A DNA stretch of 64,000 nucleotides, taken from assembly GCA_028286615.1 (NCBI GenBank), contig JAQBRG010000003.1, positions 147,406-211,405 of the forward strand, written 5' to 3'. Every line of letters begins with the position of its first letter. Positions within the stretch are counted from its first letter, which is position 1. Shown one piece after another: positions 1-51,187 of the stretch. The position numbers and the translations under genes are program-made. Origin of the DNA: Parcubacteria group bacterium (GTDB taxonomy: Bacteria > Patescibacteriota > Minisyncoccia > Phycocordibacterales > Phycocordibacteraceae). The notes under the pieces are model-generated. The model saw only the letters and a program-made list of their open reading frames with translations, had not been told where the DNA came from and did no database searches.

Positions 1-222
1 GGCAGCTTCATAGCGACCAGCTCGTTGCAGTGCCTTGACGGCTTTTGAACGAAGAACGATATGGCCGTCATCATTATCATTGCCGAGTTTTCCGGCAATT
101 GGATTCTGGCGTAGCTCCTCGTCAGTTGCCAGTGGAATTTGAACTCCTACCCATTGTTCTCGGATTTCAAGCGGAGCGAGAACTCCAGGCGGAATATCAA
201 TAATGCGAATAGAACTCATCAG
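1..222 (-). CDS. hypothetical protein, 5' portion (ATG at 222, runs off window start)
   Basis: Reverse-complement of 1-222 translates from ATG without a stop (MSSIRIIDIPPGVLAPLEIREQWVGVQIPLATDEEL...). Not in ORF track because it is open at the window edge. Confidence 0.4.
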   Translation of the reverse strand, partial: MMSSIRIIDIPPGVLAPLEIREQWVGVQIPLATDEELRQNPIAGKLGNDNDDGHIVLRSKAVKALQRAGRYEAA

Positions 223-361
223 AGCCTCCTTAGCTGCTGGTTGAAGCCAACATATCATATTCAAAAGCAAAGGCACGCTTTCACCTGGAGACAGGTTCTT
301 CTATGATGTTCCATTCCAGGGTATGTAAGCCTGCTCTTCATTTCCATGCTAGATTTTTGGT

Positions 362-868
362 ATGAGAATCCCAGTTGTTGACCGAAACGATATACAGATC
401 GCGACAAAAGAGCGAGACAATCTCGAACCAGGCGATTTTTACCGTGTCTCGGCACTTTGGCTTACAAATTCAAAAAGAGAAATCCTACTCGCTCAGAGAG
501 CTCTCTCCAAGGAAAATAGTCCTGGGAAATGGGGGCCAGCCGTTGCAGGAACTGTTGAAGAAGGAGAAACATACGACGTAAATATTGTGAAGGAAATTTC
601 CGAAGAAATAGGGATTTTTGTTTCCATAGATCAACTCAGAAGAGGTCCCAAGCTTTTTATTCATACTACAGAAAAAGGTTTCTTCGATCAGTGGTACTTC
701 TATACTGTCGATCTGTCTCTTGAGGAATTCGTTATACAAGAAGATGAGGTAGCTCAGATCCGATGGGTAAGCCAGGATGTTCTTGAGAAATGGTATGCCG
801 AGCATCCGGAAGAGTTTCTATCAAATACTTCTCAGTGGCTTCCCCAACTCCTTTCATATTCTAGTTAG
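362..868 (+). CDS. NUDIX hydrolase
   Basis: Nudix box GTVEEGETYDVNIVKEISEEIGI (GX5EX7REUXEEXGU pattern) seen in the translation. Confidence 0.8.
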   Translation: MRIPVVDRNDIQIATKERDNLEPGDFYRVSALWLTNSKREILLAQRALSKENSPGKWGPAVAGTVEEGETYDVNIVKEISEEIGIFVSIDQLRRGPKLFIHTTEKGFFDQWYFYTVDLSLEEFVIQEDEVAQIRWVSQDVLEKWYAEHPEEFLSNTSQWLPQLLSYSS

Positions 869-967
869 AATCTTGCATCAAGCGTTGATGGATTAAGAAT
901 TGTTTTGAGCAAAAGTAGAACGCTCAATCTTGTGAGATCGAGCGCTGTTCCACTTTCGGTGGAAATT

Positions 968-1099
968 CTATTGGGACCGCCTCTTCTGCAGAAAGCGGTC
1001 GATGAGAGGAGCGAAGATGATGGCGACAACCATAATGCCGCTGACCAGCAGCATGCCGCTCTTTTCGCCGAGCCGGTCACGGATGAGGTCGTACCTCAT
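968..1099 (-). CDS. 43-aa single-TM micro-protein (MRYDLIRDRLGEKSGMLLVSGIMVVAIIFAPLIDRFLQKRRSQ)
   Basis: Hand-translated minus-strand ORF with ATG and TAG and a clean C-terminal hydrophobic helix. No obvious SD. Below the ORF-track size cutoff. Confidence 0.3.
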   Translation of the reverse strand: MRYDLIRDRLGEKSGMLLVSGIMVVAIIFAPLIDRFLQKRRSQ

Positions 1100-1198
1100 G
1101 AAGAGAATCACAGCGTCCCATCACGACCCAGCGTTCGCACACCTGAGCATCAAATACGAAACCCGCCAGAGGTCCTAAGGACTTGGCGGGTGGCTCGT

Positions 1199-1891
1199 TT
1201 AGAGCGTGATGATGCTTTCCCAAGAAGGAGTTGCCCACCCTGGATCGGCGTCAAGCTCGCTGTCGCGCTTCATTTTGATTTTACCGCCATATACATAGAA
1301 GTCCGGGACAAACAGTTTGTGGTTTGTATCCAAGATGCGGGAACCAGATGCGTGCAAGTTGTGGTCGCTAAAGATCTCAGGGTTAATAATCGTGAGAGCA
1401 AGAACCTCTTCAACATTCATTGCGTGTCGAGGCGTGAGTTCGACACCAGCTTTGTAGGGGCTAAGTCCCAGGGACTTGTAGCCGCACTCCACATTAACCA
1501 GAAGATAAGGCGCGGCTGTGGGTCGGTCGGGAGCGTCCACGACATTCACAATATCCTCCGGGTTAAGAAAGCTATGCGATGACTTTCCCTTATATCGCAC
1601 CGTCTGAAGCTGATCTTCAAAGGGCATCAATCCAAACGGAAAAACAAGGACGAGTGGAAGGTTCCTCGACTCGCCAGAAGGCACAGAGATGGAGTCGGGA
1701 ACTTTCTCTCGTAGCAGGAAGAATAAGTCACTAGCCTCCTTTATGAACTTAAAACGGGTGCCCGAAGGACTGAACTTCCTGGCTTGGGCATCTAGGATGT
1801 CCAGCAGCTCTTGGTTGCTATAGCTCGGCATGTCTACCTCTCCTTTGAATTGGACTGAACACATTTCAACATATCTGTTACGTTTTGACAA
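1199..1891 (-). CDS. hypothetical protein
   Basis: 230-aa ORF with protein-like composition. The overlapping plus-strand ORF 905-1582 is low-complexity and preferred as antisense artefact. Confidence 0.5.
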   Translation of the reverse strand: MSKRNRYVEMCSVQFKGEVDMPSYSNQELLDILDAQARKFSPSGTRFKFIKEASDLFFLLREKVPDSISVPSGESRNLPLVLVFPFGLMPFEDQLQTVRYKGKSSHSFLNPEDIVNVVDAPDRPTAAPYLLVNVECGYKSLGLSPYKAGVELTPRHAMNVEEVLALTIINPEIFSDHNLHASGSRILDTNHKLFVPDFYVYGGKIKMKRDSELDADPGWATPSWESIITL

Positions 1892-1900
1892 CTGGCAATA

Positions 1901-2000
1901 GAAAAACCGCCCTTCCGGGCGGCTTCTCTTACTTCTTAACTTCTTTGTATATAACCCGCTGGCGGAGCGTTGGGTCGAACTTCATGAGTTCGATCTTGCG
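1901..2000 (-). repeat. direct repeat copy 1: truncated rpmG 3' end (last 23 codons) plus terminator hairpin
   Basis: 100 bp, 97/100 identical to 2749-2848. Minus strand reads ...LFTRKIELMKFDPTLRQRVIYKEVKK* followed by hairpin GCCGCCCGGAAGGGCGG and a T-run. An upstream in-frame stop shows it is a fragment. Confidence 0.85.
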
Positions 2001-2022
2001 AGTGAACAATTAAATATTTAAG

Positions 2023-2691
2023 TTATTCTGGTATAACCTTCACAAAAGAGTAGCTGCCTTTTGAAAGGTCATATTTCCAGATTTCTTTTGAGGATGTGCG
2101 TGAGAAGCCGTATTCATTAGTCTCATCTATAACAACTTCATACGCAGTAACGTCTATTGAATCTTTATCGTTCCACACATATGAATCAATTACAGGATTA
2201 ACTCCGTTACTGCTTGCAAAGGGTGGCTTAATTGAAATAATTTTTGAATTATTTAGATCAACTAAAGTTATCTTAAAATCTCCACACCCTGCTCCACAAG
2301 CGGTATAACTTCCAAAACTTAGGTAAGCGCTATTGGGAGAGAAAACAGGATTGTCTTTTATAGTTCCAGCAAAGTTTCCAATAACCTTTCCGTTCAAACT
2401 TATATTATAAATTGGGTTTCTGGAGGCTTGACCTGATTCAGAAAAAGATATTTTTGAACTAGTTGTTTGACTTGTAAATACTTTCCTTGTAACACCCTTA
2501 TCTGCAGTTATAGAGAAAATAGGAGCGGGTACATGAAGAGTGTTAGCAGTATGCGATACGGGAGTCGTAGCAGTAGCGTCGGGCAGGCTTACATCTTGTC
2601 GGTTATGAGTAAGCCAGTAGAAAGAAGGTACTCCTAAGATAATGAGGAATATTACAATCAAGATTGCTAGTGTCCGCTTGCTCGTATTCAT
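2023..2691 (-). CDS. signal-anchored secreted/surface protein, AT-rich (likely acquired)
   Basis: N-terminal hydrophobic anchor LAILIVIFLIILGV followed by Ser/Thr/Asn-rich domain. AT-rich codon usage unlike neighbours. Lies exactly between the two rpmG 3'-end repeat copies. Confidence 0.6.
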   Translation of the reverse strand: MNTSKRTLAILIVIFLIILGVPSFYWLTHNRQDVSLPDATATTPVSHTANTLHVPAPIFSITADKGVTRKVFTSQTTSSKISFSESGQASRNPIYNISLNGKVIGNFAGTIKDNPVFSPNSAYLSFGSYTACGAGCGDFKITLVDLNNSKIISIKPPFASSNGVNPVIDSYVWNDKDSIDVTAYEVVIDETNEYGFSRTSSKEIWKYDLSKGSYSFVKVIPE

Positions 2692-2748
2692 TTGTTCTAT
2701 TGTACTACCCCTTCCCTTGGGAAAGGCTTCTATTCAGATATTTCAAAA

Positions 2749-2848
2749 GAAAAACCGCCCTTTCGGGCGGCTTCTCTTACTTCTTAACTTCTTTGTATAT
2801 AACCCGCTGGCGAAGCGTTGGGTCGAACTTCATGAGTTCGATTTTGCG
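2749..2848 (-). repeat. direct repeat copy 2 (intact rpmG 3' end plus terminator)
   Basis: Matches 1901-2000 with 3 mismatches. Part of the functional rpmG gene and its terminator. Confidence 0.85.
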
Positions 2849-2932
2849 CTCAACCTTCTTCTTATTCTTGCGGCTGAAATAGACGTGTTCCGACTTCGTT
2901 GAGCGGAGTTTTATAAGGCGATCCTGTGACAT
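2777..2932 (-). CDS. rpmG: 50S ribosomal protein L33
   Basis: 51-aa translation MSQDRLIKLRSTKSEHVYFSRKNKKKVERKIELMKFDPTLRQRVIYKEVKK. C-terminal (K/R)xELxKFDPxxRxHVxYKExKK pattern typical of L33. Followed by a rho-independent terminator. Below ORF-track cutoff. Confidence 0.85.
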   Translation of the reverse strand: MSQDRLIKLRSTKSEHVYFSRKNKKKVERKIELMKFDPTLRQRVIYKEVKK

Positions 2933-2959: not shown

Positions 2960-5656
2960 TTACGCAACCGCGGCAACCTTAGGGCGGGAGACGCGCTTGG
3001 CGGTCTTTCGAACCTCAAAGTGTGGTGCGCCTAGCTTGAGTGAGACTTCCACATGACCGCCTTCCATAACACCCTGGTCAACCATGAGAGAGGCTATAGG
3101 GGTAAGGATATGGTCCTGGATAGCACGTTTGAGCGGTCGAGCGCCGTACTGGGGGTTGTATCCCTTATCAGCAAGCCAGGTCTCAACCTCAGGAGCAATG
3201 TTAAGCGTTATACGCTTCTCTCCTAGACGGCGCACAACCTCCGCAACCTGGTTCGTTACAATCCGCGTAATAGTCTCCTTAGAGAGGACGTCGAAGGTAA
3301 CAATGTCGTCGAGACGGTTGAGGAACTCAGGACGGAAGTGGTCTTTGAGTGCAGTCATAACCTTCTCCTTAATTCCTTCGTAGCGTACAGCGTCGTCTGC
3401 GTCGCTATGGGCAAATCCGATACCCGCCATACGGTCTATGAACTCAGCTCCTATGTTAGAGGTTAGGACAATGATGGTGTTCTTGAAGTTAACCTTCCTT
3501 CCCTTTCCGTCTGTAAGGTGTCCGGAGTCGAGCACCTGGAGAAGAATGTTGAACACTTCTGGATGCGCCTTCTCAATCTCGTCGAAGAGCACAACGGCGT
3601 ATGGGCGATGGCGAATGCGTTCAGTAAGAGAACCGGACTCTTCGTATCCAACATAGCCCGGAGGTGCACCAATAAGCTTTGAGATGGAATGCTTCTCCAT
3701 GAACTCGCTCATATCAACACGAACGAGTGAGTCTTTGTCGTTAAACATGAACTCTGCAAGCTGGCGAGAGAGTTCTGTCTTTCCAACACCGGTTGGTCCC
3801 ATAAAGAGGAACGAGCCAATAGGACGATTAGGATCTGAGATACCTACACGAGATCGCTTAACGGCGTTTGTTATAGCCTTAACTGCAGCGTCTTGTCCTA
3901 TAACCGCTTCCTTAAGTGCATCTTCCATGCGAGCAAGCTTTGAAGCTTCTTCCTCGATCATCTTTGCTAGAGGAATACCGGTCCAACGGGAGACAACTCC
4001 TGCGATCTCATGCTCGGTAACTTCTTCGTGAAGGATGCGACGAGACTTCTGAAGAGTCTTGAGGCGCTTCGTCTTGAGTTCGAGTTCCTTCTGAAGATGC
4101 GGAATGCGTCCGTAACGGATTTCTGCCGCAGTTCCAAGGTCTGCTGTTGCTTCAGCGTTGTCTGCCTGTACACGAAGCGTATCGAGTTCGGTCTTTATGC
4201 CACGAATACTCTGAAGGACTTCCTTTTCGTTCTTCCACTTAAGCTCAAGCTCTGAAGTTTTCTCTCGAAGATCTGCAATCTCAGTATCAATCGCCCTCAC
4301 ACGCTCGCGTGCTTCTTTAGCATGCTCACGCTCTTGGCCCGTCTGAGTCTCGTCATCCTTCTTAAGGGCTTCCTTCTCAATTTCAAGTCGGCGAATCTTT
4401 CTATCAGTTTCTTCAAGCTGTGGAGGCTTGTTCTCTAGAGCAATACGGAGACCTGAAGCGGCCTCATCTATAAGGTCTATAGCTTTGTCTGGGAGGAATC
4501 GGTCCGTTATGTAGCGGCTTGAGAATTCAACGGCAGACACAATAGCGCCATCTGTTATACGGACACCGTGGAAGAGTTCGTACTTGTCGCGAAGTCCGCG
4601 AAGGATAGCAACCGCGTCTTCAGTTGATGGCTCGTTCACAAACACTGGCTGGAAGCGACGCGTAAGAGCGGCGTCCTTTTCGATGTGCTGCTGGTATTCC
4701 TTGAGCGTTGTTGCGCCAATCATACGAATCTCGCCACGAGAGAGCGCAGGCTTAAGCATGTTCGTTGCATCCATAGAGCCTTCAGCAGCTCCGGCACCAA
4801 CGAGCGTGTGGAGCTCGTCCACGAAGAGAATAACCTTCCCTTCTGAACGCTCCACTTCTTTCATAACGCCCTTCATGCGCTCTTCGAACTCTCCTCGATA
4901 CTTCGTACCTGCGATCATAAGACCAAGGTCTAGAGAAAGAAGCTCCTTTCCGCGAAGAGATTCTGGAACGTCTCCTGTTGCAATGCGAGTTGCGAGTCCC
5001 TCAGCAATAGCCGTCTTTCCAACACCTGCTTCTCCTATAAGGACAGGGTTGTTCTTGGTGCGGCGAGCGAGGATTTGTATAACGCGTCCTATTTCAAGGT
5101 CTCGGCCAATAACAGGATCAAGCGCATTGTCTGCTGCCATCTTGGTTAGATTGCGCGTGTACTTAGCGAGTGCACGAAAACGTTTAGGTTCTCCGCTCTG
5201 TCCGTCCTTTGATGTTTTAAGTTCTTTAAGTACTGAAAGCACTGTCTCTGCATCAATGCGGAAACGAGATATAACATCCGCTGCAGGTCCTGGGTGTTCG
5301 AGCACCGCCACAAAGAGGTGTTCGGTACCCACAAACGGGTCGTTCATGCGGGCTGCAACTTTTCCAGCAGCTTCTAGCACTTCTGCCAGTTCAGGCGTTA
5401 AGTACAGGTTGTAGCTAGGAGAGAGGGTTGAGGCTGTCTCAGGAATCTCGAGGATCTCAAGAAGCATGTCTGCAAGAAGCATGGTGTCTATGTCCATGCG
5501 GTCGAGCACAGAGAACACGAGACTCTCCTCCTGATGTAGGAGAGCGGTTAAAAGATGAAGAGGGCTCACATGGTTCTGGCCACGTTCAATAGCCAGCTCG
5601 TGTGCCTTCTTTATCGCTTCTTTTGCTTTGGTGGTGAAGTTTTTGAAAGGGGGCAT
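2960..5656 (-). CDS. clpB: ATP-dependent chaperone ClpB
   Basis: 898 aa with N-terminal Clp repeat domain, two AAA+ modules ([10 protein letters not shown] and [10 protein letters not shown] Walker A motifs) and a middle coiled-coil. Confidence 0.95.
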
Positions 5657-10376: not shown

Positions 10377-10453
10377 GGCCTGGTGGCGAAGTAGATTAAC
10401 GCGATGGATTGCAAACCCATTATGCGCGGGTGCGATTCCCGCCCAGGCCTCCA
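10377..10453 (+). tRNA. tRNA-Cys (GCA)
   Basis: Hand-folded cloverleaf: acceptor GGCCTGG/CCAGGCC, anticodon loop TTGCAAA, T-arm GCGGG-TGCGATT-CCCGC, 3' CCA encoded. Irregular: 3-bp D stem, A:C at anticodon-stem base, G at position 55. Confidence 0.6.
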
Positions 10454-10498
10454 AATAACGTCTTGATAATTATTTGATCTCCATATGCTTATGCTGGC

Positions 10499-10996
10499 TT
10501 GATGCCAAAGTATAAGTATAAAAACGATCGATGGAGTGAAGAGAATCTGCGCAAAACAGTTGCGGAGTCACTTAGCATTCGTGAGTGTCTAGAAAAATTG
10601 GGTCTATTTCCTGGAGGTGGAAACTATAGTCAGTATCATTTTCATATCAATAAATACGACATAGATACTTCTCATTACACTGGGCAGGGTTGGCGTAAGA
10701 ATAGAAGAGTGCCTAAAGAACCTTTATACAGTACAGAAGAATTATTTATTGCCGGTGTCCCACGTTCTCGGAGGAATCTCAAGAGGAGATTATACGGAGA
10801 AGGTTTCAAACTACCTAAGTGCGAAGAGTGCGGATGGGCTGAAGTAAGCCCAGACGGCCGCTTGCCTTTGGAGCTTGATCACATAAATGGAGACAATATG
10901 GATAACAGGATAGAGAACCTTCGTATCCTGTGCCCAAACTGTCATAGTTTGAAACCTACCCACAGAGGCAGTAACATGGGCAGAAGGCCGGGGTGA
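10499..10996 (+). CDS. HNH endonuclease (homing-endonuclease-like), AT-rich
   Basis: C-terminal HNH motif CEECGW...LELDHINGDNMDNRIENLRILCPNCHS. AT-rich codon usage. Sits between two tRNA genes, and its stop codon lies inside the 5' acceptor stem of tRNA-Leu. Confidence 0.8.
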   Translation: MMPKYKYKNDRWSEENLRKTVAESLSIRECLEKLGLFPGGGNYSQYHFHINKYDIDTSHYTGQGWRKNRRVPKEPLYSTEELFIAGVPRSRRNLKRRLYGEGFKLPKCEECGWAEVSPDGRLPLELDHINGDNMDNRIENLRILCPNCHSLKPTHRGSNMGRRPG

Positions 10997-12279: not shown

Positions 12280-12352
12280 TCCGCCTGCCTGGATTCGAAC
12301 CAGGGACCATCTCCTTAAGAGGGAGTTGCTCTACCAACTGAGCTACAGGCGG
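12280..12352 (-). tRNA. tRNA-Lys (CTT)
   Basis: Minus strand: acceptor CCGCCTG/CAGGCGG, D-arm GCTC-AGTTGGTA-GAGC, anticodon loop CTCTTAA, T-arm CCTGG-TTCGAAT-CCAGG. Confidence 0.75.
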
Positions 12353-12400
12353 GTTAAGATGAATCCTAGCACAAGGAGTTAGTTTGGTTCAATAGGAAAT

Positions 12401-12481
12401 GCTGGAGTGGCGAAATGGTATACGCGCTTGCCTTAGGAGCAGGTCCCTTCGGGGGTGGAGGTTCAAGTCCTCTCTCCAGCA
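12401..12481 (+). tRNA. tRNA-Leu (TAG), type II
   Basis: Acceptor GCTGGAG/CTCCAGC, anticodon stem CTTGC/GCAGG with loop CTTAGGA, long variable arm CCC-TTCG-GGG, T-loop TTCAAGT. Confidence 0.75.
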
Positions 12482-12564
12482 CACTTGACAATACTTGGTA
12501 TTGTGTGATATATTTTAAAGTGGAAGACATTGCTATTTGATGTCCAAATGAAAGGTTCAATCTC

Positions 12565-13680
12565 ATGGCCACCGTGCCTCACAGTACTGCGACTAAAGTG
12601 CGGATCGAGATTTATTGGATCACGGTCGCCCTCGTCACCCTCCTGCCGCTCGCTAGCCTGTCTCTGCCAACTCTTCTGATGGGCGTTCGGTTTACTGTCG
12701 TGCACTGGGCCTTCACGGTTCTGCTCGCGGCATACTACCTGACGTCAATCATGTTCGTTCAAACGAATGAACGAGGAGGTATCACAGTCCTCGAAAAGCC
12801 GGCACGAGAAGTTGGGCCGGGAATGTATTTCGTGCCCCGCTTCCTGATGGAACTCTTTACGATTCCAATCTCGACTCAGCAGGATCAATTCCCTGCTGAT
12901 CCGGAGCTCATCTCTAAAAGGCCGGATGAATTTGGCCTGAAAGAAAACGAGCTTCGTCCAATTCGTGCTACCACTGCTGCCGGAAGAATCGTTCCAGGTG
13001 ATGATCTTCAGAACGAAGACCCCCTTAACACGCGACTCACGCTTGAGCTCACCTACAGCATTCGCTGGAGACTCCGCGAAAAAGGATTCTTCGATATGTA
13101 TGTTTCTATCCCAGGCAGAACCTGGGACGACATGCGTACGGAAATCCGTCGGCAGATGCGCGATACGTCAGAATCTGAACTCGTTGAAGAAGTCAGTAAG
13201 CGGACGCCGTTCGAAGTGAACGGCGACATTCAGGTTCTTAACGCGGAGCTTGAACGCGAGGTCCAAACTGGAGTTTCTGATTGGGGTATCGATATCCTCG
13301 AGGCCCGACTGCAAACTCCGGATTTCTCGCACGACGTCAGCAAGGCTCTCTCCAACATTGCCACCAACCGCGCCGAAGCACAGGCAACTGCTGCTAAGGC
13401 GCAAGGTGAGCAACAACGTCTGATCCTTGAAGGCGAGGGTCAGGCTCAAGCCCGCGAAAGGCTGGCAACCGCTCGACAAGCTGAAATCGCCGCAGAAGGC
13501 AAAGGCCTCAAAGAAGCAGCTGATGCTTTGGAAATGCCCGGCGCCGACTACTACGCGGGCGAGATCGTCAAAACCGCTGTCGGTGAAGGTGACCTGATCA
13601 TCGGCACTGACGGCATATCCCAAATCGCCGGCCTCGGAAAATATATCTTCAAAGGCAAAAACGGAAAGGACAACACCTGA
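12565..13680 (+). CDS. SPFH/band-7 (stomatin/prohibitin/flotillin/HflKC family) membrane protein, GC-rich
   Basis: N-terminal TMs, SPFH core (VLEKPAREVGPGMYFVPRF...TQQDQF) and C-terminal Ala/Gln/Glu-rich coiled-coil. Visibly GC-richer than flanking core genes. Confidence 0.8.
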   Translation: MATVPHSTATKVRIEIYWITVALVTLLPLASLSLPTLLMGVRFTVVHWAFTVLLAAYYLTSIMFVQTNERGGITVLEKPAREVGPGMYFVPRFLMELFTIPISTQQDQFPADPELISKRPDEFGLKENELRPIRATTAAGRIVPGDDLQNEDPLNTRLTLELTYSIRWRLREKGFFDMYVSIPGRTWDDMRTEIRRQMRDTSESELVEEVSKRTPFEVNGDIQVLNAELEREVQTGVSDWGIDILEARLQTPDFSHDVSKALSNIATNRAEAQATAAKAQGEQQRLILEGEGQAQARERLATARQAEIAAEGKGLKEAADALEMPGADYYAGEIVKTAVGEGDLIIGTDGISQIAGLGKYIFKGKNGKDNT

Positions 13681-27875: not shown

Positions 27876-28262
27876 TTAAAATAAAAGTCTTTTGATTCTT
27901 TCTTTCATTAAGGAGAAGTCTGGCCGATTCATCTTTCCTATGTAGCGGTTAAATCTCTTCGTGCTTATTAAGTGCACATGAGTTATTAAAGCCACCCATT
28001 TATCACCTTTATTTTCAAATAAAAAATAATAAGGGAGATCTTTAAAGGTTGAGGTTGTGGGTACGATGAGTGCCAGACCTTTTCCAAACGTTTTGAGCAC
28101 AATTATTGGCCTTTCGTATAAGGCTTTCTTACCGTCTTGCTCGTCGCCTATATTTAAGCCTACTGAGCACCACCATATATCTCGCTCATACACGATCAAC
28201 TCAGATTTTTCTTCTTCTATTCTTTTCTTCTGCTCATTCCACGCATCAAAATCCTTTTGCAT
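27876..28262 (-). CDS. MazF/PemK/Kid-family endoribonuclease toxin-like protein, AT-rich, no cognate antitoxin gene seen
   Basis: ERDIWWCSVGLNIGDEQDGKKALYERPIIVLK...LIVPTTS matches the MazF/PemK pattern (DIVW..., G.EQ.G.RP.VVL, V.P.TS). AT-rich. Confidence 0.7.
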   Translation of the reverse strand: MQKDFDAWNEQKKRIEEEKSELIVYERDIWWCSVGLNIGDEQDGKKALYERPIIVLKTFGKGLALIVPTTSTFKDLPYYFLFENKGDKWVALITHVHLISTKRFNRYIGKMNRPDFSLMKERIKRLLF

Positions 28263-38311: not shown

Positions 38312-38317
38312 CAAATA

Positions 38318-38346
38318 GAAAAACCGCCCGAGTGGGCGGTTTTTCT
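38318..38346 (+). terminator. rho-independent terminator after tRNA-Glu
   Basis: AAAAACCGCCCGAGTGGGCGGTTTTTC. Confidence 0.8.
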
Positions 38347-50575: not shown

Positions 50576-51187
50576 TTATCCATCTGTTTCTTCGCCTTTT
50601 TCAATGGTTCGCTGCCAATTCTTGATATGGATGAATTGGACTCGTCTTTGATCTAGGTCCTCACGTTCAATTATCGCCTTGAGTCGTGTTGAGAATCGAT
50701 TTTTATTGAAAAAATCCTTATTTTGACTGGACACAATTCTAACAGTGGCACCCTTCTCTAAGAGTTTTTCAATCAGGTATGCAAAATCTCCATCTCCCGT
50801 GAAAATCAAAGCTTGGTCCCCTTCTCTTATGGTTTCCAAGGCGTCGACAGTTAGTTCAACATCACAGTTAGATTTCTGATTCCCTTTTACCGTTTCTTTG
50901 TACGTAAAATCGCCGTGGCATTTGGGGCAGGCAACCTCAATCTCCTTAATCGTATTCGGATGAATGTGAGTTAGTTTAGTTCTGACGACATAACCCATTT
51001 CTTCGATTCTCTCGAGCTGCTCCTTCTCTTTCTCGCCCTTATGACCTTTATAGAAAAAGACAGAAGTACATGACCACTTATCGTTTACAAGCAGTTCATA
51101 GAGCTTTGACCAATCAATAGAAAAGCCAAGTACATTCTTGGTTGTACCCGTGGTATTCGGTACGTCTATGAAGGCAAATCTCCGCAT
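50576..51187 (-). CDS. NYN/PIN-like domain protein (LabA/DUF88-like) with CxxC...C zinc ribbon insert
   Basis: MRRFAFIDVPN N-terminus and FTGDGDFAYLIEKLLEKGATVRIV are NYN hallmarks. ACPKCHG...C insert. Confidence 0.6.
   Translation of the reverse strand: MRRFAFIDVPNTTGTTKNVLGFSIDWSKLYELLVNDKWSCTSVFFYKGHKGEKEKEQLERIEEMGYVVRTKLTHIHPNTIKEIEVACPKCHGDFTYKETVKGNQKSNCDVELTVDALETIREGDQALIFTGDGDFAYLIEKLLEKGATVRIVSSQNKDFFNKNRFSTRLKAIIEREDLDQRRVQFIHIKNWQRTIEKGEETDG

Follow-up and report, generated by a model that had tools for sequence, protein, structure and literature searches.

The end of rpmG, the gene for ribosomal protein L33, is present twice in the 64,000-nt stretch of Parcubacteria DNA analyzed here (the window), and the two copies enclose a single gene of foreign composition. 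This structure is a genuine scar of insertion, of a type already known. As its origin we tentatively prefer a single insertion event that was anchored by homology and brought in DNA from a conspecific or very closely related donor, narrowly ahead of insertion by an integrase supplied in trans.

Across the 64 kb, a repeat search detected only one long direct repeat, at positions 1896-2000 and 2744-2848 (105 nt, spacing 848). Pairwise alignment revealed four mismatches between the copies (1899/2747, 1915/2763, 1965/2813 and 1995/2843; 96% identity) and a longest identical run of 49 nt. The first-pass annotation had described a duplication of 100 bp (1901-2000 and 2749-2848, 97/100 identical), which was confirmed and extended to these limits. 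Further copies, a search for which had been proposed there, were sought using a 63-mer taken from the repeat; it matched only the two known sites, and there was no match in 100 shuffles. Copy 2 (2744-2848, reverse strand) comprises the last 23 codons and stop codon of rpmG (2848-2777) followed by 33 nt with the terminator. Copy 1 (1896-2000, reverse strand) is a displaced rpmG tail (2000-1929) with a second terminator. It encodes the same 23 residues as the end of rpmG (RKIELMKFDPTLRQRVIYKEVKK, then a stop), and an in-frame TAA upstream closes its frame, as expected from the earlier description of a truncated tail. A strong hairpin with a GNRA-type loop was predicted in each copy. That of copy 2, the rpmG terminator (2755-2770, reverse strand), reads CCGCCC-GAAA-GGGCGG followed by a T-run (dG -24.9 kcal/mol, z -6.3), and that of copy 1 (1907-1922, reverse strand) reads CCGCCC-GGAA-GGGCGG. 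Judged from the sequence, the copy 1 terminator probably now stops the transcript of the inserted gene and insulates the next gene. All four differences between the copies are silent: two are synonymous, one exchanges one GNRA loop for another and one lies in the T-tail.

The intact rpmG (2777-2932, reverse strand) encodes 51 aa. Its product matched Pfam Ribosomal_L33 over the full length (PF00471; E = 9.6e-12, 45.5 bits, cutoff 25), and the gene aligned over its full length to rpmG of relatives. Further, it is adjacent to clpB (2960-5656, reverse strand, upstream of rpmG; 898 aa; Pfam AAA_2, ClpB_D2-small and Clp_N), and the clpB-rpmG order was conserved in 78 of 80 related loci. The claim that copy 2 belongs to an intact 51-aa L33 gene with its terminator was thus substantiated. 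The relatives carry a single copy at this locus, which rules out two ancestral rpmG paralogues. The GenBank annotation lacks rpmG: the accessions pass from MDB5264729 (the inserted gene) to MDB5264730 (ClpB), and L33 is absent from the protein collection. In practical terms, the public annotation of this Parcubacteria genome omits rpmG.

The insert between the copies is 743 bp in length (2001-2743) and contains one ORF, hereafter the cargo gene (2023-2691, reverse strand; 222 aa). The 52-nt leader (2692-2743, reverse strand) contains a small hairpin, and its -10-like box (TACAAT), which ends 9 nt before the ATG, may mark a promoter; a scan for consensus promoters detected none in the leader. 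On the distal side, a 22-nt spacer (2001-2022, reverse strand) ends at the 2000/2001 junction, which has no counterpart in rpmG and at which the trailer of the cargo gene is fused to rpmG codon 29. No microhomology at this junction was evident from reading the sequence on the window side. The GC content of the insert is 0.37 (window, 0.50) and that of the cargo gene is 0.38; the GC3 of the cargo gene is 0.29, compared with 0.49 for clpB and 0.49-0.57 for the neighbors. The insert thus contains, as originally described, a single AT-rich gene.

The first-pass annotation had described the cargo protein as secreted; we correct this to a single-pass membrane-anchored protein of approximately 220 aa with a partial beta-propeller, and it is a member of a sizeable uncharacterised family. 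A transmembrane helix at the N-terminus is joined to an ectodomain rich in beta-structure, with partial propeller blades; its AlphaFold2 model (pLDDT 88) matched beta-propellers in Foldseek (TM about 0.35). A word-index search had suggested an orphan gene, and an exhaustive HMMER search overturned this. There were 126 representative-cluster matches at E <= 0.001 and 54 at E <= 1e-10, the best being 46% identical (phmmer). The homology was full-length (HMM score 226 bits) with conserved motifs that included SPKExWxYDL. In the family alignment, FSPNxxY, CGAGC and VIDSYxW of the cargo protein correspond to the consensus FSPDxxYF, CGAxC and IESYxW. No Pfam or PHROG match was obtained for the protein, and a viral-contig scan was likewise negative; a phage origin is therefore unsupported.

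We compared the rpmG locus with that of relatives, as the first-pass annotation had suggested. Neither the cargo gene nor the duplicated rpmG tail was found in any of 78 related species, and no member of the cargo family was present in 80 related loci. In all close relatives, synteny stops at the rpmG terminator, which is the repeat boundary 1896/2744. The region past the terminator is hypervariable as far as a convergent tRNA-Trp gene; in relatives the length of the gap after rpmG lies between 8 and 7211 nt, and singleton genes occupy it. In the window, the first gene of this region past the repeat is a DUF5701-like gene (1199-1831, reverse strand; 210 aa; PF18959, E = 4.4e-06, just under the cutoff), of which there were no homologues in 80 related loci and whose 210-aa start is backed by a Logan gene call. 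The region also contains a NUDIX hydrolase gene (362-868, forward strand; Pfam NUDIX), and four relatives carry NUDIX genes in the same spot. The rpmG-to-tRNA-Trp interval is thus a clade-wide spot of gene turnover in Paceibacteria-like genomes, useful for strain typing and for the study of gene flux in rarely cultivated organisms.

No related species shares this rpmG terminator or spacer, and over the same coding stretch the nearest one is approximately 18% different by hand count. Because the terminator is lineage-specific and yet the two copies differ at only 4 of 105 positions, both copies probably come from one species-level lineage and not from a conserved attP. The four variant positions, when compared with relatives, did not separate a donor copy from a resident copy. 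A pattern scan for the L33 C-terminus identified only two Hainich contigs (83.5% DNA identity), and neither a conspecific genome nor an empty-site allele was found. Exact-protein look-up of L33, the cargo protein and ClpB returned no contigs on record, and that of the NUDIX protein alone led to a contig (L081).

A collapsed-read artefact had been named as one result that would overturn the original interpretation. It is contradicted by the four mismatches between the copies, which a collapsed repeat would not retain, and by an independent Logan contig (run SRR13312974). This contig is identical to window 1-1945 and ends 30 nt past the copy 1-specific base 1915, as expected of a k = 31 graph when both repeat variants are present in the reads. 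Further, it joins the flank-side variants of copy 1 to the DUF5701-like gene and breaks exactly where the second variant must exist. A subtler artefact would be that an empty site and a separate molecule or strain variant were misthreaded through the 49-nt core common to both copies. The window belongs to a 278-kb contig of a metagenome-assembled genome with the locus-tag prefix JWN64, and at k <= 49 the integrated state and an empty site plus an 848-bp loop would share the same k-mer graph; moreover, the cargo protein is without a Logan record, although neighboring genes from the same run have them. However, the 2000/2001 junction must be present in the reads under either threading, and a free replicon of 848 bp is implausible. 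We regard misthreading as very improbable.

From the observed repeat and its limits, the two rpmG copies, the foreign composition of the insert, its absence from relatives and the hypervariable setting, we infer the donor, the intermediate and the enzyme as follows. A unit of approximately 0.85 kb, consisting of the last 72 nt of rpmG, the terminator, the 52-nt leader, one foreign gene and the 22-nt trailer, would have been inserted by recombination anchored in the rpmG tail, and the 105 nt common to the incoming DNA and the chromosome would thereby have come to be present twice. As a result, rpmG would have stayed intact with its terminator, the new gene would have received the second terminator, and the old tail would have become a dead copy before the next gene. 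The donor, a conspecific or a very close relative, would already have had the cargo gene directly after its own rpmG terminator. Host recombination would have made the join in a single event, either by one crossover of the Campbell type with a fragment that had circularised or by insertion of a fragment with one-sided homology and one illegitimate joint at 2000/2001; an rpmG-specific integrase would be required by neither. Known minimal homology lengths make a 49-nt identical run sufficient for RecA-type pairing. Because the 1896/2744 boundary is where homology between genomes ends, only the illegitimate joint at 2000/2001 needs explaining, and four silent differences of four are what is expected of two working alleles. 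The failure to find a recombinase in the scans described below, the lack of recurrent use of rpmG and the free turnover of genes in the region also argue for homology-anchored insertion. Against it, the topology is exactly that of integrase insertion into a gene 3' end, and the process calls for an intermediate that is out of the ordinary, namely a fragment that circularised or one that joined at one side only. Further, the 16-nt tRNA-end repeats at the nearest cargo homologue (described below) are too short for homologous recombination, and a GC3 of 0.29 means that the cargo gene itself would be a recent arrival in any donor of 50% GC.

The silent differences also bear on whether the tail was duplicated in situ. 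Replication could have switched template, for example when the terminator hairpin stalled it, and re-entered 105 nt upstream after copying foreign DNA, or a staggered break could have been filled in; the copies would at first have been identical and diverged later. Such an event dispenses with both a circle and a recombinase, one boundary lies directly after the strong hairpin and T-run, and a single occurrence fits the absence of the structure from all 78 relatives. However, the coding part of copy 1 should then drift, and the probability that all four differences would be silent if one copy were a drifting pseudo-copy is approximately 0.02-0.04. The age implied by a divergence of 3.8% also conflicts with the unameliorated GC3 of the cargo gene. 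In addition, 105 nt far exceeds any known transposon target-site duplication, and there are no terminal inverted repeats at the insert ends. We consider duplication in situ unlikely. A transposon or insertion sequence, which is defined by a 2-15 bp target duplication, terminal inverted repeats and a transposase, was rejected on the same two features and on the lack of a transposase. An integron gene cassette was rejected as well, because the 22-nt trailer has no attC-like palindrome and no integrase was found.

The first-pass annotation had read the layout as the footprint of site-specific integration. The parts of that reading that stand are the topology (a restored target, with the partial copy displaced to the far end), the foreign insert, absent from relatives, and the intact rpmG. 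According to this explanation, a tyrosine or serine integrase would have acted on an attP carrying a replacement rpmG tail and terminator, and the unit would be a non-autonomous mini-element mobilised in trans or what is left, in CIME-like form, of a larger element that decayed. Several integrase families target the rpmG 3' end in streptococci, where tandem accretion and decayed elements also occur, and silent differences also fit an element-borne replacement tail under selection. The parts that fell short concern the enzyme, the recurrence of the site and the terminator. The insert contains no recombinase gene, since its single ORF is without a Pfam match (the earlier statement that it lacks an integrase was correct), and none lies beside it (DUF5701-like, NUDIX and ClpB by Pfam). 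A motif scan of all window ORFs with crude regular expressions, which reached approximately 160 nt to the left of position 1, was negative. For the relatives, the 20 largest of the mid-sized ORFs in the variable region were scanned individually against Pfam and yielded no recombinase, and none was among the best 25 families from a pooled scan of all 140 such ORFs. None of the 78 related loci contained a second direct rpmG tail. The repeats of the unit are att-like; neither the window nor the relatives yielded an ICE or IME that uses the rpmG tail. Moreover, a travelling attP would not show 96% identity across a lineage-specific terminator, and the non-coding DNA of the insert, at 52 + 22 nt, leaves little space for arm sites. 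Site-specific integration is a serious possibility, which we rank a close second to homology-anchored insertion.

Repeats of tRNA ends in relatives bear on the same question. The closest homologue of the cargo protein (46% identical) is encoded between exact 16-nt copies of a tRNA-Ala 3' end, in the order repeat, about 50 nt, gene, 15-22 nt, repeat, a geometry very close to that of the rpmG unit. Further, 7 of 44 relatives carry extra copies of the tRNA-Trp 3' end in the same intergenic spot as the rpmG unit, beside a conserved three-hairpin module that matched no Rfam family. On sequence grounds, the tRNA-Trp duplicates and the tRNA-Ala case suggest that sequence-directed insertion is active in this clade, and both speak for an integrase. 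However, the three-hairpin module is absent from the rpmG-tail unit. Flanking repeats as a trait of the cargo family were rejected, as none was found in five members (P0003, P0004, P0005, P0009 and P0013), some on short contigs. More speculatively, CPR bacteria may harbor a class of tiny integrative cassettes, non-autonomous and with one gene each, that are bracketed by copies of the 3' end of a small conserved gene (rpmG in the window, tRNA-Ala and tRNA-Trp in other genomes) and moved by a recombinase encoded elsewhere, and that would shuttle genes for partial-propeller surface proteins between strains; the three-hairpin module would be the recognition structure of its tRNA-targeting members. 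We consider such a class rather doubtful.

If homology-anchored insertion is correct, the locus is a clean and datable case in which a reduced CPR genome gained one surface-protein gene with an essential ribosomal gene undisturbed, and in which, with the terminator duplicated, every transcription unit has a separate stop. If an integrase acted in trans, the targeting of the rpmG tail would reach from Firmicutes to CPR, and miniature integrative cassettes would be indicated.

In Streptococcus, ICEs and IMEs with tyrosine integrases insert at the rpmG 3' end (Ambroset et al., 2016, PMC4701971; Coluzzi et al., 2017, PMC5357655), and for these elements decayed integrase-less remnants and tandem accretions have been described (PMC4701971, PMC5357655). 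The present unit resembles these elements in the gene and the end that are used, in direct repeats derived from the tail and in the intact target. Unlike them, it resides in a member of the CPR, is only 0.74 kb in length with a single gene, and has no integrase, relaxase or other element gene that we could find; its repeat, at 105 nt, extends over a lineage-specific terminator, and use of rpmG was not recurrent in 78 species. The mini-islets at tRNA 3' ends in relatives and at the closest cargo homologue (L087, L007, L014, L040 and others) are 0.17-0.93 kb in length, single-gene or gene-less, and without an integrase inside. Like the rpmG unit, they are bracketed by direct repeats that copy the 3' end of the conserved gene beside them, and one of them holds a gene of the cargo family. 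An IS200-like Y1 transposase was observed in L007. In contrast, their repeats are 15-18 nt in length and accompanied by the three-hairpin module, whereas the rpmG unit has a 105-nt repeat without the module.

The prophages phage 21 and e14 insert within the protein-coding gene icd of E. coli and bring a replacement 3' end. As in the rpmG unit, they leave a long 3'-end duplicate with mostly silent differences from the host copy, and the gene is functional after insertion. In contrast, they are prophages, whether complete or defective, and have an integrase beside the attachment site, and none was found at the rpmG unit. Flexible genomic islets lie at recombination hot-spots between conserved genes and turn over by homologous recombination in the flanks and by homology-facilitated illegitimate recombination. 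Those arising by double-crossover allele replacement leave no duplication, whereas the rpmG unit needs a single crossover or a one-sided join. The rpmG unit is otherwise like such islets: no integrases were found, it lies at the edge of a clade-wide rpmG/tRNA-Trp hypervariable spot with singleton genes, and one end of its repeat is the point where homology between genomes stops.

Window positions 1896-2000 and 2744-2848 form a direct repeat of 105 nt (96% identity; start-to-start spacing 848 nt). A repeat search detected no other long direct repeat across the 64-kb window, and a 63-mer taken from the repeat had no further match in the window beyond the two copies (0 in 100 shuffles). The copies differ at four positions (1899/2747, 1915/2763, 1965/2813 and 1995/2843), and therefore the 97/100 identity given for 1901-2000 in the first-pass annotation was exact. 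The minus strand is the sense strand for every gene involved. Along this strand, clpB (5656-2960) is followed by intact rpmG (2932-2777; 51 aa; Pfam L33, E 9.6e-12) and its strong terminator hairpin (2770-2755), then by a 52-nt leader, the inserted cargo ORF (2691-2023; 222 aa), a 22-nt trailer, the duplicated final 23 codons of rpmG with stop codon and terminator (2000-1896), and a DUF5701-like gene (1831-1199). The repeat runs from exactly rpmG codon 29 to 11 nt past the terminator stem. The copy at 1896-2000 is indeed the truncated rpmG tail described previously, encoding the same 23 residues with the frame shut by a TAA just upstream; the description of one AT-rich gene between the copies likewise held, with a single 222-aa ORF in a 743-bp insert (2001-2743; GC 0.37 versus 0.50 for the window). 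The hairpins of both copies fold strongly, with GGAA and GAAA loops, each of the GNRA type. A terminator just downstream of tRNA-Glu (38314-38346) is 82% identical to that of rpmG and shares its CCGCCC/GGGCGG stem, with a different loop. rpmG (2777-2932) is missing from the public annotation of the MAG, in which MDB5264729 (cargo) is followed directly by MDB5264730 (ClpB); the 51-aa L33 sequence was also not in a 15-billion-protein collection.

In this arrangement, rpmG would retain its C-terminus and terminator after the insertion. The leader contains a -10-like TACAAT ending 9 nt ahead of the ATG; the cargo transcription unit would start with this candidate -10 and end with the duplicated terminator, and the DUF5701-like gene would retain its original upstream region. 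As all of these would be kept, the insertion was probably close to neutral for the neighboring genes.

The window lies in a 278-kb Parcubacteria-group MAG contig (proteins MDB5264727 to MDB5264730), and an assembly artefact was considered because the cargo protein had no record in the Logan collection, though that holds 985-bp contigs. A 2106-bp Logan contig from run SRR13312974, an independent single-run assembly, was identical to window 1-1945 and ended exactly 30 nt past base 1915, which is specific to the truncated copy. In a k=31 graph, such a break occurs where two distinct predecessors lead into the 30-mer that follows. The break shows that both repeat variants occur in the reads of this run, with the variants of the truncated copy joined to the DUF5701-like flank. 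Further, a mis-threaded repeat cannot produce the 2000/2001 junction. Given this junction and the Logan contig, an artefact is very improbable.

We compared 80 clpB loci of species-representative Patescibacteria genomes (ClpB identity 79-85%). The clpB-rpmG order was kept in 78 of them, and synteny with the window extended over ~10 kb upstream and, in all close relatives, ended at the terminator of rpmG. The first-pass annotation had suggested comparing the rpmG locus among relatives; the insert was absent from them, and none carried an rpmG-tail duplicate. A second direct copy of the tail was found in 0/78 related clpB-rpmG loci, the only extra matches being the palindromic terminators themselves. 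Neither a member of the cargo family nor a DUF5701-like gene was detected in the 80 loci. Downstream of rpmG, the relatives possess a variable stretch and then a conserved block (a transmembrane protein, a small protein and a second transmembrane protein, followed by putative miaA, peroxiredoxin and parB, the last three identified by eye), which was not found anywhere in the 64-kb window. The far border of the variable stretch is a convergent tRNA-Trp, with 8 to 7211 nt between the rpmG stop and the tRNA-Trp 3' end (44 loci), and its content is nearly all singleton genes (pilins, NUDIX, HIT, HAD, MFS, beta-lactamase-like, HNH and others). The Logan contig contains a putative tRNA-Trp 3' end ~130 nt left of window position 1, near-identical to that of one relative (L007). 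The window thus appears to share the plan of the relatives, tRNA-Trp side included, and its variable stretch comprises a 96-aa ORF, a NUDIX gene, the DUF5701-like gene, the displaced, dead tail of rpmG and the cargo gene. This stretch covers window 1-2743 and ~160 nt leftward (L081:1-161). Another interval, between tRNA-Cys and tRNA-Leu(TAA) (10453-10987), holds a 165-aa ORF (10499-10996) with a CPNCH...H stretch, HNH-like when read by eye; the gap is 8-170 nt in most relatives and about 500-580 nt in four (L020, L025, L028 and L033), suggesting a recurrent small insertion.

The terminator after rpmG was different in every related species, and the nearest species differed by roughly 18% in the coding part of the repeat (72 nt; hand count), whereas the two copies differ at only 2/72 coding and 2/33 non-coding nt. 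This comparison indicates that both copies derive from one species-level lineage. Each of the four differences is functionally silent: two are synonymous codons (Lys AAA/AAG and Leu CTT/CTC), one is a GNRA-loop base and one a T-tail base. Such a pattern has a probability of about 0.02-0.04 under random substitution. It suggests, weakly with four differences, that both copies were functional alleles during their divergence, as opposed to one gene and one drifting pseudo-copy. One repeat boundary coincides with the end of homology between related genomes, and thus the sole illegitimate joint is 2000/2001. An in-situ template switch would not require an enzyme. It is nevertheless unlikely in view of the silent differences and of the GC3 of the cargo gene, which is low at 0.29 (clpB, 0.49; DUF5701-like gene, 0.57).

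A word-index homologue search with the cargo returned only itself, and an exhaustive HMMER search yielded 126 representative clusters (54 at E <= 1e-10; best identity 46%), ruling out an orphan gene. The family alignment showed proteins of ~220 aa that combine a transmembrane helix at the N terminus with a low-complexity linker and a conserved beta-rich domain (motifs FSPDxxYF, CGAxC, IESYxW and SPKExWxYDL). The AlphaFold2 model (pLDDT 88) consists of antiparallel sheets that partially match beta-propeller blades (TM about 0.35). No match was detected in Pfam, PHROG or viral contigs, leaving a phage-borne gene unsupported. The cargo is therefore a predicted membrane-anchored, partial-propeller surface protein. 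A second family member in run SRR13312974 (P0004, 35% identical) lies on a contig (L090) distinct from the NUDIX/DUF5701-like contig, and therefore the family is not confined to a single organism of that community. A more distant member, P0020 (L082:1-5815; also L083 and L084), lies within a run of small same-strand genes parted by a recurring 28-56-nt motif (...GGTTCCCACGTCGTACCAGACGGCCA...), with an opposite-strand gene weakly matching Zn_ribbon_recom at one end; this layout resembles a cassette array. Two other low-GC genes in the window (27876-28262, GC 0.37; 50576-51187, GC 0.41; window 0.50) may also be recent acquisitions.

The viable readings have a common core, which we consider highly probable: a ~0.85-kb unit, made up of an rpmG tail, its terminator and the cargo, was inserted through a recombination event in the tail of rpmG. 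The first-pass annotation had read the locus as a footprint of site-specific integration. Its topology, which is the canonical one for integrases, and the foreign nature of the insert support this reading, as does the use of the rpmG 3' end in streptococci as a target of ICEs and IMEs with tyrosine integrases of several families (PMC4701971, PMC5357655). Att-like repeats also flank the closest cargo homologue, P0002 (46% identity), on Hainich groundwater contigs L086 and L087 (same DNA). P0002 lies 320 nt downstream of tRNA-Ala(TGC). The terminal 16 nt of this tRNA occur there in three exact copies (L087: 365-380, 637-652 and 1452-1467), and P0002 is located between copies two and three. Internal repeats of 29 and 30 nt, both exact, and an inverted tRNA-end copy (423-445) are also present in L087:306-1467. 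Further, the final 16 nt of tRNA-Trp recur as one or two additional direct copies within the variable stretch of 7/44 relatives, on the strand of the tRNA; about 4e-4 per locus is expected by chance (our own arithmetic). These copies lie 168-932 nt from the tRNA (L007, 12182-13185; L014, L022, L040, L043, L056 and L080). They indicate that sequence-directed insertion without a resident integrase is common in the rpmG-to-tRNA-Trp spot. In L007, the tRNA-Trp ends bracket 916 nt whose sole gene encodes the one IS200-like Y1 transposase noted (12316-12990). Recombinases were sought with Pfam in the 20 largest candidate ORFs from variable regions of relatives, in the best 25 families listed for all 140 pooled variable-region ORFs, and by scans with crude motifs, and none was detected. 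It is a real possibility that a miniature or decayed element was moved in trans by an integrase or another site-specific enzyme; against this stand the single rpmG event among 78 species, the long, lineage-specific repeat, and the absence of a recombinase and of the tRNA-side module. For these reasons we tentatively favor a one-off insertion of conspecific DNA, which would have been anchored by homology in the rpmG tail.

The tRNA-side module is an element of ~75 nt with three hairpins (GAGCA, P1, TCCGCAAG-GTGTACWG, P2 of 5 bp with a TGTAA loop, GAWA, P3, GG). A pattern scan gave 16 matches in 12/95 loci, including L007:12170-12262, L014:11630-11737, L022:17942-18034, L040:14665-14773, L056:5870-5976, and L087:563-652 and 1425-1467, and also L009, L042, L058, L076 and L077. 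Most copies terminate in the last 15-18 nt of the adjoining tRNA (Trp or Ala) and the rest in other sequence, and the module is co-located with tRNA-end duplicates in many Paceibacteria-like genomes. P2 shows compensatory changes at 4/5 pairs, none broken, and Rfam contained no matching family. The module could be the end of a miniature tRNA-targeting element family, a single-stranded-DNA hairpin site or a small RNA, and may be more novel than the rpmG islet.

The tRNA-side insertions in relatives have 15-18-nt repeats at the tRNA end and do not use the rpmG end. The geometry of the P0002 islet (repeat, 50 nt, gene, 15 nt and a 30-nt module, repeat; spacing 815 nt) is almost identical to that of the cargo unit. 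In streptococci, rpmG-targeting elements also occur as tandem accretions and decayed forms (PMC4701971, PMC5357655). An islet of this type, bracketed by direct repeats and located at a conserved gene's 3' end, is of a known kind; the present one is unusual in its lack of an integrase, its small size, its long repeat and its CPR host.
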